Of a DNA stretch of 64,000 nucleotides, positions 47,527-56,981 are shown one piece after another. The notes beneath the pieces are model-generated. The model did no database searches, was not told where the DNA came from, and saw only the letters and a list, made by a program, of their open reading frames with translations. Position 1 is the stretch's first letter. The number at the start of each line of letters is the position of its first letter. The position numbers and the translations under genes were made by a program. Source of the DNA: an uncultured Candidatus Saccharibacteria bacterium (GTDB taxonomy: Bacteria; Patescibacteriota; Saccharimonadia; Saccharimonadales; Saccharimonadaceae); assembly GCA_947090635.1 (NCBI GenBank), contig CAMUOM010000001.1, positions 42,277 to 106,276 of the forward strand, read 5' to 3'.

Positions 47527-48876
47527 CTAATCTTGAAAATGATTGACTAACTCAGTAATTTTAACTCGCTCCTGCTCAGTAGTATCACGGTTACGCACCG
47601 TCACGCTATCGTCGTCTAGACTATCAAAGTCAACTACTACGCAGCTTGGCACACCAATCTCGTCGGCTTTACGATAGCGCTTACCGATGTTGCCACTATC
47701 ATCCCAGTTTATGCGGCCTGGGAAAGCATCATTAAGCTCATCATATACTGCCTTAGCTTTAGTTACTAACTCCGGCTTATTCTTTAGCAGCGGCGATACT
47801 GTTACTAGTACTGGTGCTAGTGCCTTTGGCAAACGCAACACATTACGCTTACTACCACCAACTTCATCCTGTTGGTAAAATGCACTCAGGATTGCCATAA
47901 CTAGGCGTTCAACACCAAACGAAGGCTCAATCACGTGTGGCACAAATGGTTCACTACCATCCTTAGGGCGATATTCCATCGACTTCTTCGCTACACGTTC
48001 AATATTCTTTAAATCAAAATCGGTACGGTAGGCAATACCCATCAATTCTTCACGGCCAATTGGGTAATCAAATTCAACATCAACCGTACGACGACTATAG
48101 TGCGCTCGGTCGTTTTCTGGCACCTCATACTCATGAATCTTATCTGCCGGTAAACCAATCACCTGTTCCAAAAATTCATGTACTAGTTTTAATAGAGACT
48201 CAAAATGCTTTTCCCACTCATCCGGCTTCACAAAATACTCGATTTCCATCTGCTCAAACTCGCGCGAGCGAAAAATGAAATCACGTGGGCTAATCTCATT
48301 GCGAAACGCCTTACCTTGTTGAGCTAAACCAAATGGCAAATCAGGGTAAACCGTATCCACCACATTACGGTAATTTGTAAAAATGCCCTGCGCAGTCTCT
48401 GGTCGCAAATAGGCCACCGCATCAGCTGTATCAATTGGCCCCACCGTTGTCTTGAACATCATATTAAAGCTTCGCACCTCAGACAATTCGTTGCCATCCG
48501 GCGATTTTATATTGTGCTCACGAATCAACTTGGTAATTTCATCGTTACTTAAGCCCTCAGCTGAGATACCGGCGTCTTTCAATAAGTGGTCGGCACGATA
48601 ACGGCGATGATTAACTAAATCTTCTACCAATGGATCAGCAAAAGTTGCGACATGTCCCGATGCCTGCCATACTTTAGGATTCATAATAATAGCAGCATCT
48701 ACACCGTAAATCTCGCGATGATGGTCAACAAAAAATTGCCACCATAAATCCTTTACACGACGCTTCAATTCGACACCAAGCGGGCCCCAATCCCAAGTGC
48801 CAGCGAGGCCACCATAAACATCTGACCCCTGATAAATAAACCCTCGACGCTTACATAGCGATATAATATCTTCCAT
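47527..48876 (-). CDS. glyQS: Glycine--tRNA ligase (alpha2 homodimeric type)
   Basis: CKRRGFIYQGSDVYGGLAGTWDWGPLG is the hallmark N-terminus of alpha2 GlyRS. 449 aa. TGcTATAAT lies 7 nt upstream of the ATG. Confidence 0.9.
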   Translation of the reverse strand: MEDIISLCKRRGFIYQGSDVYGGLAGTWDWGPLGVELKRRVKDLWWQFFVDHHREIYGVDAAIIMNPKVWQASGHVATFADPLVEDLVNHRRYRADHLLKDAGISAEGLSNDEITKLIREHNIKSPDGNELSEVRSFNMMFKTTVGPIDTADAVAYLRPETAQGIFTNYRNVVDTVYPDLPFGLAQQGKAFRNEISPRDFIFRSREFEQMEIEYFVKPDEWEKHFESLLKLVHEFLEQVIGLPADKIHEYEVPENDRAHYSRRTVDVEFDYPIGREELMGIAYRTDFDLKNIERVAKKSMEYRPKDGSEPFVPHVIEPSFGVERLVMAILSAFYQQDEVGGSKRNVLRLPKALAPVLVTVSPLLKNKPELVTKAKAVYDELNDAFPGRINWDDSGNIGKRYRKADEIGVPSCVVVDFDSLDDDSVTVRNRDTTEQERVKITELVNHFQD

Positions 48877-48891
48877 AATACTATTATAGCA

Positions 48892-49584
48892 CTACACCTG
48901 CGCGGCAGCTGCAGCCAAATAAACCGCATTAGATAATACAGCGTCATCTATACCGACTAAACGCGCCGCTACGGCGGCGTCATTCGCTAAAAGCACCCGC
49001 AATAATTTTAATACTACGGTATTATACCGTCCCTGCGGGTTAAAAACAAATACACCGTCCGCCTTATTGTAATCATAGCTCGCGCCTTCCACCAGCTGCA
49101 TCCCGTTGCTATCCGTCAATAAGTTTAATTCCATTCCAGATAAACGTGCTAACTTCAAATAAAACCATGTCTTCACAATACGCAAATCAACCGTTGACTT
49201 ATCCAATAACTCAATTACACCCAACAGAATGTCATATAACTCCGGCGACTCAATCGCGTCAGCTAATTTAGACGTTCGTTTGATAGCATCATAGCCAAAC
49301 TGCAATCGGTCATAATCGGTCATAATATAATCATAAAAATGCATTAGACGCGCACTTGTTAACGTCCACATCCCTTGCAGATTCATTGCGCTCTTCGCCA
49401 AACTAAGTTCACATGTAGCAAACAGTTCGATACAACCAGCCAAGCGCGACTGCTCCCGACGCACGCCACGTGCAATCACCGCCAACTGGCCGTGTTCACG
49501 CGTCAAGACGCTCAAAATTCGATCTGCTTCCTTGTAATTAGTCCGACGCAAAATAATGCCAGTAACTTTCAGCGTATCACTCAT
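48892..49584 (-). CDS. recO: DNA repair protein RecO
   Basis: N-terminal OB-fold region LKVTGIILRRTNYKEADRILSVLTREHGQ. About 230 aa. Its ATG overlaps the upstream stop as ATGA. Confidence 0.75.
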   Translation of the reverse strand: MSDTLKVTGIILRRTNYKEADRILSVLTREHGQLAVIARGVRREQSRLAGCIELFATCELSLAKSAMNLQGMWTLTSARLMHFYDYIMTDYDRLQFGYDAIKRTSKLADAIESPELYDILLGVIELLDKSTVDLRIVKTWFYLKLARLSGMELNLLTDSNGMQLVEGASYDYNKADGVFVFNPQGRYNTVVLKLLRVLLANDAAVAARLVGIDDAVLSNAVYLAAAAAQV

Positions 49585-49943
49585 GCCGACAACCCCCAAA
49601 TTACCTGCTTTAAGTCTGACGGACTATAAGTAGACTTATCAAATACAAACTTAACACCAAAAGCAGCAACATCATCAAGCTTAATTGCCCTGCCGCTAGC
49701 AGACAATATTACCTTTGGTAATTTTAATGTATCGTTATAACTTGCCATCTCATTCAGCAGTGTCATTACATTATCCGCTCCCAAATGCCAATCACACACC
49801 AGCACGTCCGGCAAACCATCATTAATTAGGTCAAATATTACCCGTGGGTTACTCTCTACGATAACATCTGCACCAAAATATCTTAAACTATTTGCCAAAC
49901 TAGCCGCAAACCATCTATCGTCGTCTAACAAAATAATTTTCAT
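49581..49943 (-). CDS. Single-domain response-regulator receiver (CheY-like) protein
   Basis: Acidic pair LLDDD, putative phospho-acceptor Asp in VLVCDWHLG, and the Ser and Lys positions are present. ATGA overlap with the upstream HK-like gene. Confidence 0.55.
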   Translation of the reverse strand: MKIILLDDDRWFAASLANSLRYFGADVIVESNPRVIFDLINDGLPDVLVCDWHLGADNVMTLLNEMASYNDTLKLPKVILSASGRAIKLDDVAAFGVKFVFDKSTYSPSDLKQVIWGLSA

Positions 49944-50629
49944 ATCAATTCCAACAAACTAAGCTGTCTACTTTCTGGTAAATGCGCTTCTATCGTCATT
50001 CCACCTTGACGGTGACAATGAAAAGCAATGCTGCCTTGCATTGCACGAGTTATCTGTTCAGCTAACAATAAATTAAGGCTACTCATCAATGGTCTACTAG
50101 CTACTGGGTTTAATTGATTAATATATACCGCGCCACAAACGTCCTTCGCAAATGGCGCGCCGTTATCTCTTAACTCTAGCACAACTTCACGATTGCGAGT
50201 TAATCGCGCACTTAACTTCACCGTTTTTCTACTATAGCGTAGTGCATCTAAACTAAACCGTACTAACAATTGTTTTAAAGCATTGTAATTACCGGTCAAA
50301 AGTGGTGAACGTTTTGGCAGTACACAAATAAATTGACAAGATAACTGTTGTGCCTCCGGCTGAACCTCCGCCTGCACTGCCATCAACAACCTATCAACCG
50401 ATACCGGCTCAAGAACTAAATCTTCAAGTGGGCTACTTGCAATACTAAGTTCGTCTACTACGCCTAAGGCTTCAGTTAAAGTAGATTGCATCCGTGCCAA
50501 TGTTATCGGCTCCGCGCCACACTGTCCAACCTCAAAAGCCAACTGGCGCAAACGTACTAGCGGAGTTCGTAAATCGCGCGTGGCCGCCGCCACAGACAAA
50601 GCCCCTAAACTTGCCCCCACTTGTTTCAT
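49940..50629 (-). CDS. Cytoplasmic histidine-kinase-like protein (DHp + HATPase_c) with Arg in place of the H-box His
   Basis: The H-box region reads AATRDLRTPL, against the consensus sHELRTPL. ATP-lid elements LELRDNGAPF and RQGGMTIEA are present. No TM helix or sensor domain. TGcTATACT lies 6 nt upstream of the ATG. Confidence 0.55.
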   Translation of the reverse strand: MKQVGASLGALSVAAATRDLRTPLVRLRQLAFEVGQCGAEPITLARMQSTLTEALGVVDELSIASSPLEDLVLEPVSVDRLLMAVQAEVQPEAQQLSCQFICVLPKRSPLLTGNYNALKQLLVRFSLDALRYSRKTVKLSARLTRNREVVLELRDNGAPFAKDVCGAVYINQLNPVASRPLMSSLNLLLAEQITRAMQGSIAFHCHRQGGMTIEAHLPESRQLSLLELI

Positions 50630-50693
50630 ATTCTCAGTATAGCAAAAAGTAGCATTTTTATGCTACTTATGCTAATAATTTGAATTCGTTTAG

Positions 50694-51380
50694 CTAAGGC
50701 TGGAATTGCAACGTACGCAAAATTGTTTCGTCAAAATCTTTCTTAAAGTCTTTACTGTCTACATATAACTTCAAAGTTTTATCGCGTACTCTAAATACCA
50801 CTACTGATCCATTAATGGTTTGCGCCAGCTGCCCATCGAATCGCATGCCTTTATAGCCGTCAAAGCCTTCGCGCGCGCCAATAGTAACCGGGCTAGCCTT
50901 AATACTACCTTTATCAACTGCACTCTTAAAGTCCAACAACGTTTTTGCGTAATCATTCGGCGAAACCACAACGCGCAAAGCATATGGAGTAACACCGGGA
51001 TTTACCACAGGAACCATAATTGGGTAAAAATAAAGTGTTAAGTTATCACCATCAGATGTTGCAACATAGCCAGACCATGTCTTTGGATAATCAAAGCGCA
51101 CCGATCCAGTCTCTGCTGGACCCTGATAATGCCGATTTGGCGTCTTTTCACGCTGCATAAACTCAGCATTATCTTGCTTGGTCTGCAACGCCTTCGCCTG
51201 TGTAACGGCTTGATCAATTTTTGCTTGGCCATTCTTCTGCCAGTTAACCATCCCCGAATATGCCCAAATAAACGCAATACAAGCACCAAATAAGAATACG
51301 CCTAGAATAATTGTTGACACTAGAAGCGGACTGACCGAACCGCGTTCGCTTGCCCTATAATCCGACCCATTATCATTCAT
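50694..51380 (-). CDS. Hypothetical membrane-anchored protein
   Basis: 228 aa with one N-terminal TM helix. TAAAAT lies 5 nt upstream of the ATG. Confidence 0.45.
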   Translation of the reverse strand: MNDNGSDYRASERGSVSPLLVSTIILGVFLFGACIAFIWAYSGMVNWQKNGQAKIDQAVTQAKALQTKQDNAEFMQREKTPNRHYQGPAETGSVRFDYPKTWSGYVATSDGDNLTLYFYPIMVPVVNPGVTPYALRVVVSPNDYAKTLLDFKSAVDKGSIKASPVTIGAREGFDGYKGMRFDGQLAQTINGSVVVFRVRDKTLKLYVDSKDFKKDFDETILRTLQFQP

Positions 51381-51428: not shown

Positions 51429-51665
51429 CTAGTCTTGTAATTTGAGCTTAATTTCATTAACCTTATTCTCTGTAGTTGACAACTTACGCTTAATAGCCTC
51501 AGCTAACTTAGCACCGCGGTCGAATTTAACGCTTGCCACCTCTACATCAACATCACCAGCATTAAACCAGTCAACGATTGACTTCAGCTCATTCATTAAA
51601 TCAGTCAGGCTTTGTTGCATTAACTCCTCATCTCCCTGCTTTTTTAAGTTATTTGTCTCTGACAT
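51429..51665 (-). CDS. xseB: Exodeoxyribonuclease VII small subunit
   Basis: 78-aa helical protein with the XseB-like LTDLMNELKSIVDWFNAGDVDVEVASVKFDRGAKL. Located immediately after xseA. Confidence 0.75.
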   Translation of the reverse strand: MSETNNLKKQGDEELMQQSLTDLMNELKSIVDWFNAGDVDVEVASVKFDRGAKLAEAIKRKLSTTENKVNEIKLKLQD

Positions 51666-52866
51666 TCTTTACCTCCATTGCAATTAATTTTTTATCAGTC
51701 TCGGCCGTTACATTCATTCCAATTCGCCACTCATGCGGCACGCCATGCTGCTCAGTCCAGATAATAGCATAGCCACGCTTCAGAACAGCTTGTGGGTCGT
51801 ATGCTTGCAAAGCCGAAATTAACGCTATTGCTCTACCTTGAGTGTCTCCTAAACTACGCATCATCTGATTATTTAGTTGCATAGTCAACGTAACTAACTC
51901 AGATTGTATATTATTTACTACTAGCGACATACTATTGTTTAACTGCGTCGCAAGACGAGTTAATTTGTCACGTCGCTGCTGCGCATCCAACACTAACACA
52001 TCAACCATCGACTTTAAATAATGAGTAGTTGTAGCGATTAATTCCCTTCGGTCTGGTACTAGCAGTTCAGCCGCATTAGACGGCGTCGATGCGCGCTTAT
52101 CTGCTACTAAGTCGATCAACGTAGTATCTATTTCATGACCGACACCGGTTAGGGTGGGGATTCGCGAAGCCGCTACTGTTCGTACCAGCTTTTCATCGTC
52201 AAATACCGCCAAATCTTCACGTGATCCACCACCGCGCAAAATACATAACACTTCTGGCGGATTTGGTAGCTCATTAAACTGCCGAATCGCTGCAATAATC
52301 TGGTCAGCCGCCGCATCACCCTGCACCTGAGTAGAAATAACATCAATTTGTATACCGCCCATCCGCGCATTAACAATTTTAATAAAATCTTTATAGCCAG
52401 CTGCCTGATTTGACGATATCACACCGATATGTTGCGGTAGAGCAGGCAATATCCTCTTACGATCCTCATCAAACAGCCCTTCCTTGGATAACTTTTGCTT
52501 CAATAGCTCAAAAGCTCGCTTAATCGCTCCTTCACCAATCGGCCTGATTGCTCGAACAGTCAGCGAAAACCGTCCCCACTTAGTTAAATTCGGCGTTGCA
52601 CGCACCTTTACCTGCATACCATCCGCTAATTCCATACGAAGAGAATACACCGACATGAAACAATTTAGTACGGATGTATCATCCTTTAAATCAAAAAACA
52701 CCCATTTGCCTTGATTTATTTTAAAGTTAGCTACTTCGCCCACTATATCAATCGTTGGTACCGCAGTGTCTAGAACCTGGTTAATAACATCTATTGCCTG
52801 CGCTACCGTAAAGCACGGTGGCATTCCGGGTAATTTATCCTCTAAATCACTATCTACGCTGGTCAT
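51649..52866 (-). CDS. xseA: Exodeoxyribonuclease VII large subunit
   Basis: N-terminal OB-fold and the central catalytic region. 405 aa. Its end overlaps xseB. Confidence 0.85.
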   Translation of the reverse strand: MTSVDSDLEDKLPGMPPCFTVAQAIDVINQVLDTAVPTIDIVGEVANFKINQGKWVFFDLKDDTSVLNCFMSVYSLRMELADGMQVKVRATPNLTKWGRFSLTVRAIRPIGEGAIKRAFELLKQKLSKEGLFDEDRKRILPALPQHIGVISSNQAAGYKDFIKIVNARMGGIQIDVISTQVQGDAAADQIIAAIRQFNELPNPPEVLCILRGGGSREDLAVFDDEKLVRTVAASRIPTLTGVGHEIDTTLIDLVADKRASTPSNAAELLVPDRRELIATTTHYLKSMVDVLVLDAQQRRDKLTRLATQLNNSMSLVVNNIQSELVTLTMQLNNQMMRSLGDTQGRAIALISALQAYDPQAVLKRGYAIIWTEQHGVPHEWRIGMNVTAETDKKLIAMEVKNVRDK

Positions 52867-55735: not shown

Positions 55736-56131
55736 CTAGGCATTGTCAGTATTATCTAGCCCCAAATGATGCTTGATTCGGTCTACTACATCACTAATCA
55801 CTACCTGAGACTTAACTAAAAAGTCATCAGCACCCAATTCCTTGGCCCTCTCCGCATCCTTAGGTTGAGACAAAGCCGTCAACATAATGATATGTATATT
55901 TTTAGTTTGCTCAGTATTACGCAGAATATCAAGCACGTCAAAGCCATTCATACGTGGCATCATTACATCAAGTAGAATTAGATTAGGCTTAAAGTCAATA
56001 GCATCTTTAAGCGCTTCCTCACCATCTTTACTGCGCCGTGTATCAAATCCTTCAAGCTGAAGACGCTGACGATAGATTTCAGCCAACGTATCATCGTCTT
56101 CTACCAAAAGAATTCGAGTCTTAGATTCCAT
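55736..56131 (-). CDS. Single-domain response-regulator receiver (CheY-like) protein
   Basis: Canonical REC: VEDDD, LILLDVMMP, IIMLTA and the Lys in DFLVKS. Start set at M3 with TATACT 6 nt upstream. Confidence 0.7.
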   Translation of the reverse strand: MESKTRILLVEDDDTLAEIYRQRLQLEGFDTRRSKDGEEALKDAIDFKPNLILLDVMMPRMNGFDVLDILRNTEQTKNIHIIMLTALSQPKDAERAKELGADDFLVKSQVVISDVVDRIKHHLGLDNTDNA

Positions 56132-56174
56132 ACTCATAGTATACCGTTAATGTTTTAATATTGCAACCATTTTA

Positions 56175-56876
56175 CTATTTTTTCTGTAATTTCGCCTTGT
56201 AATAAGCAATGGCCTGATGCGCTGCTTGCTGTTGCGCCAACTGCTTACTGCCGCCTTCGCCACTTCCCCACTCAACTTCATCAACAAAAACCCCAATGGT
56301 AAATTTTTTGTCATGGTCGGGGCCAGACTCGGCTAATACGCGATACTTCGGAGTCACACCACAATAGCGCTGCGATATTTCCTGCAAATACGATTTCGCA
56401 TCACGCCAAGAACCATCCTCAATAATCTTGTCAATATTCTTAATAATATGTTTGTCGATAATCTTTTTTGCCGCATCAAAGCCTTGGTCGAGATACACCG
56501 CACCAATTGTTGCTTCAAAACAATTAGCTATAATATGCAACTTGGAATGTTCTGTACCATTTTGTTCACCTTTACTCATTCGCACTAGCTTAGCATATCC
56601 AAGCTCTTCACCAGCATCACGAATCGACTCTGTTCGCACTAGCGCTGCGCGCCAAGATGTCAATACTCCTTCTGGTAAATCGAAATGTTTAAACAAATAC
56701 TCAGTAGTTACTAGTTCCAAAACAGCATCACCTAAAAACTCTAGCCGCTCATTATGAGCGCGCGCTAGCTTACGATGTTCATTCACATAGCTACGGTGAG
56801 TTAAAGCAGTTACAATTAGTGATGGATTATTAAATTCAAATCCCAACGACTGCTGTGCCCAAGCTTGATAGGGCAC
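56175..56876 (-). CDS. rnc: Ribonuclease III
   Basis: Catalytic ERLEFLGDAVLEL and a C-terminal dsRBD. Start chosen at GTG (VPYQAW..., 20 aa before ALTHRS) with GAAGGTG SD 8 nt upstream. The track ORF extends 35 codons further upstream from a TTG. Confidence 0.8.
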   Translation of the reverse strand: MPYQAWAQQSLGFEFNNPSLIVTALTHRSYVNEHRKLARAHNERLEFLGDAVLELVTTEYLFKHFDLPEGVLTSWRAALVRTESIRDAGEELGYAKLVRMSKGEQNGTEHSKLHIIANCFEATIGAVYLDQGFDAAKKIIDKHIIKNIDKIIEDGSWRDAKSYLQEISQRYCGVTPKYRVLAESGPDHDKKFTIGVFVDEVEWGSGEGGSKQLAQQQAAHQAIAYYKAKLQKK

Positions 56877-56981
56877 AAAGTCTACACCTTCAACCTCTGG
56901 TACAATCGGCTCATCAGCCGGACGAGGCTCAAAATCGGAAAAAACAGCCCGCTTTTGGCGAGTATTCTTAACTCTAGACAA

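Follow-up and report, generated by a model that had tools for sequence, protein, structure and literature searches.

Our analysis concerned two small overlapping genes in a 64-kb window (the whole stretch of DNA analysed here, 64,000 nucleotides) of the Candidatus Saccharibacteria contig CAMUOM010000001.1, where the list of open reading frames places all genes of the region on the minus strand. The first gene encodes a putative pseudo-histidine kinase, hereafter psHK, composed of a dimerization and histidine phosphotransfer (DHp) hairpin and a catalytic and ATP-binding (CA) domain, and the second encodes a receiver-only response regulator. The features that bear directly on this pair are the following.

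49940..50629, minus strand: psHK, 229 amino acids; DHp hairpin (residues ~8-64) followed by a degenerate CA/HATPase_c domain (~70-220), without a transmembrane (TM) or sensor domain
50576..50578, minus strand: Arg18, codon CGC, which aligns with the phospho-acceptor His (EnvZ H243)
50246..50248, minus strand: Asp128, codon GAT, replacing the Mg-binding N-box Asn (EnvZ N347)
50159..50167, minus strand: Asp155-Asn-Gly157, a residual G1 box whose adenine-contacting Asp is kept and invariant
50072..50080, minus strand: Ser184-Leu-Asn186, in place of the G2-box Gly-Leu-Gly (EnvZ G403, G405) and inside the clade-invariant segment RPLMSSLNLLLA
49581..49943, minus strand: receiver-only response regulator, 120 amino acids, with D8, D9, D51, S81, and K103 and a clade-specific His53 two residues after the Asp (D+2)
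49940..49943, minus strand: ATGA in which the end of psHK and the start of the receiver gene overlap, checked base by base
49581..49584, minus strand: ATGA in which the receiver gene ends and the ATG of recO begins, checked base by base

Counted from stop to stop, the psHK frame is open for only 11 codons 5' of the ATG, and its homologues share this start site; an N-terminal TM or sensor domain is therefore impossible. An earlier note on this DNA, made from the letters alone, had described the protein as sensor-less, and in this respect, as in most of its description of the locus, it held up. Both ATGA overlaps that it reported are exact, the Arg that it saw at the acceptor site recurred in four alignments with no other His in the DHp, and the HATPase_c-like domain was recovered as a subthreshold Pfam match and as a CA fold in an AlphaFold model. 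The downstream order of recO and then a glycyl-tRNA synthetase gene is likewise as described, the synthetase being of the dimeric type.

Catalytic residues and fold of psHK

Our alignments consistently put an Arg where a histidine kinase carries its phospho-acceptor. In a phmmer comparison with solved structures, psHK ATRDLRTPL aligned to CpxA ISHELRTPL with Arg18 on the His, and a profile-profile alignment (hhalign, probability 99.95%, E 1e-38) placed Arg18 on the His of the His-bearing relatives. A MAFFT alignment with EnvZ paired R18 with H243, D19 with D244, T22 with T247, D128 with N347, D155 with D373, G157 with G375, S184 with G403, and N186 with G405, in a numbering that matches the published residue names of EnvZ. 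Over its full length psHK matches the transmitter halves of RstB, EnvZ, AtoS, QseC, and CpxA in NCBIfam. Pfam HisKA, which scores 20 to 27 bits in the His-bearing relatives, was undetected in psHK even at E<=10.

An alternative H-box elsewhere in the protein was considered and rejected. A check of the full sequence found no His in residues 1-203, DHp included, and the only His residues (204, 206, and 216) all lie in the CA domain; with a DHp free of His, there is therefore no displaced H-box.

The nucleotide-binding site has degenerated as well. Alignments to CpxA and EnvZ (N347) show that the N-box Asn is Asp128 in psHK, which is, as aligned, the same substitution as EnvZ N347D, a mutant called kinase-/phosphatase+ in the title of Dutta and Inouye (1996) as cited by PMC5727384 and PMC8541618. 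In the G2 box, which belongs to the ATP lid, psHK has S-L-N where G-L-G is expected. The G1 box, DxGxG, reads D-N-G-A-P, so that Asp155 and Gly157 are kept and the last Gly is gone, a position that is likewise unconserved among the His-bearing relatives. The HATPase_c score of psHK is 25.1 bits, just under the Pfam cut-off of 26.4, and within the family this score is 51 to 57 bits in His-bearing relatives versus 21 to 30 bits in the clade that carries Arg. Because it lacks the acceptor His, the Mg-binding Asn, and both G2 glycines, psHK is predicted to be incapable of autophosphorylation, and we infer that it does not bind ATP. It is almost certainly not a histidine kinase in function.

A cryptic activity was nevertheless weighed, in which psHK would act as a kinase or in a phosphorelay through a non-canonical acceptor, be it phospho-Arg18 or another residue, or through back-transfer from the receiver. 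The invariance of the Arg at the acceptor site and the retention of G1 Asp155 and Gly157 would fit such an activity. Moreover, Asp can ligate Mg2+ and Asn can take glycine-like backbone angles. However, no histidine kinase fold is known to us to autophosphorylate on Arg, the DHp offers no alternative His, three more nucleotide-site residues have changed along with the His, and the HATPase_c score is lower in the Arg clade. In EnvZ, the N-to-D change by itself reportedly eliminates kinase activity. We regard a cryptic kinase as very improbable. Of the two roles that the earlier note had offered, a pseudo-kinase scaffold or a non-canonical phosphorelay, the first is thus the one we favor, and the second is unlikely given that the N-box Asn and both G2 glycines were lost together with the His.

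The predicted structure agrees with a histidine kinase fold. The AlphaFold model of psHK, a monomer predicted from an alignment of 18 sequences (predicted local distance difference test [pLDDT] 78.3, predicted TM-score [pTM] 0.72), consists of two helices, 8-37 and 41-64, followed by an alpha/beta domain, and the lid (162-178) is disordered in it, with a pLDDT of ~42. The best Foldseek match in the PDB is the pseudo-kinase DivL (4q20; E 8e-14, TM-score 0.72), followed by HK853 and RetS, and among the 329 matches at E<=1e-3 the top 50 are nearly all DHp-CA structures of the histidine kinase type. A non-kinase or Ser-kinase GHKL family (SpoIIAB/RsbW, MutL, GyrB, Hsp90) was rejected, as psHK possesses a DHp; the earlier note had named a match to a non-kinase GHKL family as an outcome that would overturn its view. 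Consistent with this, psHK has no match to non-kinase GHKL families in Pfam or NCBIfam, and its structural neighbors are histidine kinases.

Conservation and descent of the recO locus

The pair lies in a compact gene cluster, whose remaining features are listed here.

48892..49584, minus strand: recO, ATG at 49584; the longest open reading frame starts from TTG at 49599 (TIGR00613, 79.7 bits)
47527..48876, minus strand: glycine--tRNA ligase, dimeric type (NF003211, 569 bits)
50636..50644, minus strand: extended -10-like motif TGCTATACT, 6 nucleotides (nt) 5' of the psHK ATG
50647..50668, minus strand: terminator-like hairpin (9 bp) with a T-run behind it, in the spacer that separates the TM protein gene from psHK
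50694..51380, minus strand: membrane-anchored protein (TM protein), 228 amino acids, a conserved syntenic neighbor whose membership in the psHK module is unproven
51429..51665, minus strand: xseB, with xseA the upstream end of the conserved cluster
51649..52866, minus strand: xseA, with xseB the upstream end of the conserved cluster

A word-index search returned 18 psHK homologs, and a genome scan with one genome per species yielded 79 related loci in Candidatus Saccharibacteria. The closest relative, from an uncultured metagenome-assembled genome, is 96% identical to psHK, and that of TM7-H1 (CP026537.1) is 77% identical; further off are those of UBA1103 (49%) and Nanoperiomorbus periodonticus (G5; ~39%). 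The sole outsider in the scan was an unrelated Streptomyces protein (Streptomyces sp. NPDC085481, L079, 4120..6654), a KdpD-like protein of 844 amino acids whose H-box, ASRDLRAPL, has Arg for His in an unrelated kinase family. In all 79 genome loci the order TM protein-psHK-receiver (REC)-recO is kept as far as the contigs reach, two short contigs ending inside the cassette. The long loci have xseA-xseB upstream. In those outside G5, recO is followed by the synthetase gene, an arrangement that the long G5 loci lack.

The flanks of the G5 loci deserve a separate remark. Dozens of independent Nanoperiomorbus/G5 assemblies (L013-L077) end ~200 nt 5' of the TM protein gene and ~100 nt 3' of recO, leaving contigs of 2.8 to 3.2 kb. 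In the long G5 loci ~3 kb are inserted between xseB and the TM protein gene, and the cluster has no adjacent glycyl-tRNA synthetase gene. These flanks may be repeated or hypervariable.

The frequency of Arg cannot be read from a genome scan whose patterns contain RDL, and the unbiased figures come from an exhaustive profile search with a hidden Markov model (HMM) that covered 1.84 billion representative proteins. It found ~117 short (200 to 300 amino acids), sensor-less relatives. The acceptor position in these is His in 83, Arg in 24, and S, Y, N, Q, D, T, or K in 11; the N-box residue is Asn in 90 and Asp in 22; and the G2 box reads GxG in 80 and SxN in 17. The comparison with orthologs suggested in the earlier note thus showed that relatives at the same locus mostly keep His, Asn, and GxG. 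Arg at the acceptor position was invariant in 71 distinct clade sequences of the alignment and likewise in the 24 representatives from the HMM search. In a neighbor-joining tree the sequences combining Arg, Asp, and S.N form one monophyletic clade that comprises the TM7-H1, UBA1103, and Nanoperiomorbus G5 lineages. Its sister, P0074, retains the His and yet already has the Asp and S.N, which suggests, from one sequence in a tree without support values, that the degeneration of the ATP site preceded the replacement of the His.

Where did this clade come from? A His-bearing member, P0017 (L081), sits in the arrangement xseA-xseB-TM-histidine kinase (HK)-REC-recO-...-glyS, and among the metagenome loci with His-bearing members the cluster is complete in 57 of 80, the remainder being truncations of the same cluster. 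From this synteny, the cluster xseA-xseB-TM-HK-REC-recO(-glyS) is ancestral in Saccharibacteria, and the pair in the window therefore arose in situ from a minimal two-component system of the canonical kind. The synteny of the 79 genome and 80 metagenome loci rejects a local insertion upstream of recO. The earlier note had reasoned from the Firmicutes order and had seen the pair as an occupant of the position upstream of recO; that frame does not apply, as the host is a Saccharibacterium and the pair is ancestral at this site.

The His-bearing and Arg clades also have in common the DHp alpha1 motif P-L-x-L-x-R-Q-L and the C-terminal SRQLSL tail. In psHK this tail reads S-R-Q-L-S-L-L (residues 220-226; window ~49952..49972, minus strand), follows the last CA strand, and is modeled with low confidence.

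We furthermore determined how strongly psHK has been constrained, using pairwise Nei-Gojobori ratios of nonsynonymous to synonymous substitution (dN/dS), in which dS is saturated in the deeper comparisons and, for recO, only locus pairs that exclude the window give valid values. The ratio for psHK is 0.041 for the window versus L001, 0.028 for L003 versus L002, and about 0.16 to 0.22 within G5, and that for the receiver is 0.03 to 0.15. The replacement residues are themselves kept, R18 in 71 of 72 sequences (the exception being the canonical L081), D128 and S184 in 69 of 72 each, and N186 in 70 of 72, and the segment RPLMSSLNLLLA is almost invariant in the aligned psHK clade. No frameshift or stop was found in psHK among the 79 loci, and its length is conserved. 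On these comparisons, psHK is maintained by purifying selection and is not decaying.

This result bears on the view that the two frames are decaying relics that persist merely as a translationally coupled spacer between a promoter and recO. A conserved promoter motif directly 5' of psHK and ATGA couplings leading into recO would suit a spacer, and psHK does evolve faster than its neighbors, with 38% identity at a distance where the TM protein and recO keep 53 to 60%. Against this stand the dN/dS values of 0.03 to 0.22, on which a pseudogene reading was rejected, the long invariant segments, the constant length, the intact frames, the coordinated change in the receiver described below, and persistence over lineages only 36 to 50% identical. 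We consider a relic extremely improbable.

The conservation of Arg18 goes beyond what the loss of a His would require. In at least a dozen scattered members outside the Arg clade, S, Y, N, D, T, K, or R stands in place of the His, and many of these proteins keep their other boxes intact (P0039, P0044, P0065, P0075, P0081, P0083, P0086, P0089, P0106, P0116, P0118, P0120, and P0157), and acceptor loss seems to recur within an otherwise canonical family. The sporadic S/Y/N/Q/D/T/K cases indicate that a mere need for "not His" would allow other residues; because Arg is fixed over lineages that are 36 to 50% identical, its conservation suggests that Arg18 itself has a role.

A comparison of spacers across loci, rather than a promoter scan, revealed how the pair may be transcribed. 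Among 138 distinct regions 5' of the kinase gene (64 Arg-clade, 73 His-clade; L001-L162), 137 carry the motif TGnTAnnnT, which resembles an extended -10 element; it reads TGCTATACT in 116 of the 137 motif-bearing regions, and in 130 of the 137 its 3' end is 6 to 10 nt before the start codon. A generic sigma-70 scan found no more sites than in shuffled sequence and missed this conserved motif. Because the spacing between motif and ATG leaves no space for a Shine-Dalgarno sequence, a leaderless or near-leaderless psHK-REC-recO mRNA is predicted, of which the pair would form the promoter-proximal part. Hairpins similar to the one upstream of psHK occur in the closest relatives (L001, L003, and L007) and are absent from more distant loci.

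The gene on the other side of this promoter opens the way for a further hypothesis, in which the upstream membrane protein (50694..51380) supplies the input that psHK lacks. Its gene is directly 5' of the kinase gene in 79 of 79 Arg-clade loci and in most His-clade loci, its dN/dS is 0.01 to 0.05, and its model shows an N-terminal TM segment and a long helix followed by an extracytoplasmic alpha/beta domain, an architecture that could suit a sensor. However, only ~17 residues of it are cytoplasmic, the hairpin and the conserved promoter motif stand between the two genes, and in 3 of the 80 metagenome loci the TM gene is elsewhere while HK-REC-recO is intact. The protein has no Pfam family; its domain resembles a PsbP/DcrB/Apa-like fold at best weakly (E 1.6e-3, TM-score 0.33-0.5), and conserved gene order says little about interaction when a genome is this compact. 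Examination of the TM protein as the missing sensor, by model, fold search, and synteny, found no functional link to psHK, and we consider a split sensor unlikely.

The receiver and a model for the pair

In contrast to the kinase, the receiver has kept its active site. It aligns end to end with RR468 (E 2e-5), where its active-site residues match D53, T83, and K105, as well as with the PhoB and RssB receiver domains. D8, D9, D51, S/T81, and K103 do not vary among the 68 distinct Arg-clade and the 71 His-clade sequences. Its Pfam Response_reg score, 26.4 bits, is below the cut-off of 30.2, and the domain is divergent; by the criterion of the 2025 survey discussed below, it is not, judged by these residues, a pseudo-receiver. 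The "degenerate two-component pair" of the earlier note is thus half right, as the kinase is degenerate and the receiver retains all five catalytic residues. A second stand-alone receiver (133 amino acids, 55736..56137, minus strand) adjoins rnc (56175..56981) and scores 85.9 bits for Response_reg with the canonical DD/D/T/K; since no histidine kinase is detectable within the 64-kb window, it would be another orphan.

What has changed in the receiver is the rim of the active site and the alpha1 helix. At D+2 the His-bearing clade has Leu (70/71) and the Arg clade His (68/68); at T+2, a hydrophobic residue is opposed to Ser (68/68), and at K+3, Met is opposed to Tyr (68/68). Within alpha1, position 15 changes from I/L/Q/V to Ser, position 19 from Y/F to Ser, and position 21 from A/S to Arg between the His-bearing and Arg clades, and position 20 switches too. 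In addition, psHK and the receiver are fused in frame in one locus (L082, 5001..6158; P0010, 385 amino acids). The nearest relative of the fusion protein, P0009, has the usual stop, and the fusion could be real or a sequencing error. Because the rim and alpha1 switch between the clades, the DHp motif and tail are shared, and a fusion occurs, these observations argue that psHK and its receiver still act as a pair, in an altered mode. The overlap of the two genes adds to this indirect evidence that psHK may bind the receiver.

We consider it reasonably probable that psHK is a pseudo-histidine kinase like DivL, devoid of catalysis but still able to dock its receiver. The analysis shows the loss of the catalytic residues, the histidine kinase fold, the orthology, the selection, the intact receiver pocket, and the correlated change in both proteins; physical binding, a role for Arg18, a phosphodonor, and an output are, like every functional statement on the pair, inferences from the sequence. 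The model would be as follows. First, psHK descends in place from a canonical minimal pair of a sensor-less kinase and a receiver-only regulator. Catalysis would then have been lost and psHK retained with its receiver under purifying selection, while the alpha1 helix and active-site rim of the receiver were remodeled. Today, a soluble dimer of psHK DHp-CA would dock the receiver through the DHp alpha1 surface P-L-x-L-x-R-Q-L. Arg18, placed where the His would face Asp51, may bind the phosphoryl group, so that psHK would read the state of the receiver or protect it from hydrolysis; alternatively, Arg18 may bind the acidic pocket itself, and the receiver would be sequestered. Phosphate on the receiver, if any, would come from another donor, such as an acyl phosphate of low molecular weight or some other kinase.

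A more specific form of this model is tentative, and we hold it possible rather than probable: the two proteins may constitute a self-contained "pseudo two-component system" in which the invariant Arg of an obligately kinase-dead dimer inserts into the acidic pocket of the receiver, still functional, and clamps or reads phospho-Asp, or locks the unphosphorylated form by mimicry, and in which metabolic acyl phosphates, and no kinase, charge the receiver directly. If true, a minimal cytoplasmic kinase/regulator pair would have been rewired in host-associated Saccharibacteria into a metabolite-state switch, expressed from the same leaderless transcript as RecO.

The intact receiver pocket is also compatible with another scenario, in which psHK, devoid of kinase activity, is a monofunctional phosphatase for receiver~P made by another donor. 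The kinase-/phosphatase+ label that the title of Dutta and Inouye gives to EnvZ N347D speaks for it, psHK keeps Asp19 and Thr22, the counterparts of the EnvZ phosphatase motif residues D244 and T247, and the His is reportedly not strictly essential for HisKA phosphatase activity (2025 survey). However, 65 of 72 clade sequences have Ala in place of the Thr of this D-x-x-T motif, so that the motif is unconserved where the protein is conserved. The His does play a part in HisKA phosphatase catalysis, HK853 requiring both H260 and T264, and a mere need to lose the His would leave a strictly invariant Arg unexplained. We therefore find a dedicated phosphatase doubtful.

Several points weigh against the docking pseudo-kinase that we prefer or against the data beneath it. 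The genome scan was biased to Arg by patterns that required RDL, the Arg-clade set is dominated by G5 sequences, and the neighbor-joining tree carries no support values. The fusion is found on a single ENA contig. The retained Asp155 and Gly157, together with the Asp and Asn/Ser at the altered positions, could in principle support some nucleotide binding, and with its D-x-x-T (Asp19, Thr22) intact a residual phosphatase activity of psHK is possible in this sublineage.

A docking pseudo-kinase at this locus would be of interest beyond Saccharibacteria. Pseudo-histidine kinases are recognized as a group, few are understood, and DivL is the main example. Here, one locus offers a natural series that runs from an active form through an apparent intermediate, with the His kept and the ATP site lost, to a dead form, and the receiver has changed in step with the kinase. 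At 229 and 120 amino acids, both proteins are small and soluble and would be suited to biochemistry and structures. That a signaling pair beside recO and xseAB is kept across the group, in regulator-poor genomes of ~0.7 Mb, makes its importance likely. Automated annotation leaves the pair nameless or would label psHK a histidine kinase; sequence-cluster look-ups gave no source name for psHK, the receiver, or the TM protein, and our literature search found no paper on the psHK family and nothing relevant on Saccharibacteria two-component systems, response regulators, recO linkage, or Southlakia.

Comparison with known systems

A first comparison is with the short, cytoplasmic, canonical HK-REC pairs that Saccharibacteria-like lineages outside the clade encode at this locus (for example P0017 in L081). 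These share with the window pair the protein length, the promoter motif, the SRQLSL tail, the xseAB-TM-HK-REC-recO-glyS neighborhood, and the DHp motif A-A-x-[ED]-L-x-x-P-L-x-L-x-R-Q-L. Unlike psHK, they have retained the His, the N-box Asn, and G-L-G; at D+2 their receivers carry Leu, and the alpha1 helix of these receivers differs as well.

A structural model for the docking of kinase and receiver is HK853-RR468 of Thermotoga maritima; psHK matches HK853, and RR468 is the best solved relative of the receiver. In this complex the His faces the receiver Asp, a geometry that we assume for Arg18 and Asp51, and receiver alpha1 is the kinase-docking helix. HK853 differs from psHK in being bifunctional, fully active as a kinase, and equipped with a membrane sensor.

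Residue by residue, psHK resembles the EnvZ mutants of E. coli and Salmonella. It carries a substitution equivalent to one at H243, a position at which H243A serves as a kinase-dead control, as well as exactly N347D and changes at G403 and G405. The mutants H243A/V and N347D, however, are engineered single changes in a membrane osmosensor, whereas in psHK four changes are fixed clade-wide and the phosphatase Thr is unconserved.

As a histidine kinase fold that has lost its catalytic residues and is kept by selection, psHK fits the accepted category of pseudo-histidine kinases. The 2025 survey, which discusses this category, found that 0.9% of HisKA domains (722 of 76,471 sampled) lack the His. 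That class is a statistical one, while psHK represents one family with a clade-wide Arg, paired changes in its receiver, and linkage to recO.

The functional precedent is DivL of Caulobacter crescentus, which has no kinase or phosphatase activity, binds ATP analogues weakly, and docks DivK~P through the normal surface (PMC4211667). Both proteins have a DHp-CA fold without the acceptor His, kept in DivL, and presumably in psHK, for binding of a single-domain receiver. DivL, however, is membrane anchored, has multiple PAS domains and a Tyr at the acceptor site, and regulates a second kinase, CckA, whereas psHK is a bare DHp-CA protein of 229 amino acids with an Arg at this site, its own overlapping receiver gene, and ~22% identity to DivL. 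Judged by sequence and predicted fold, psHK is thus an analogue of DivL and not a member of the DivL family, having originated independently in a Saccharibacteria-specific family.

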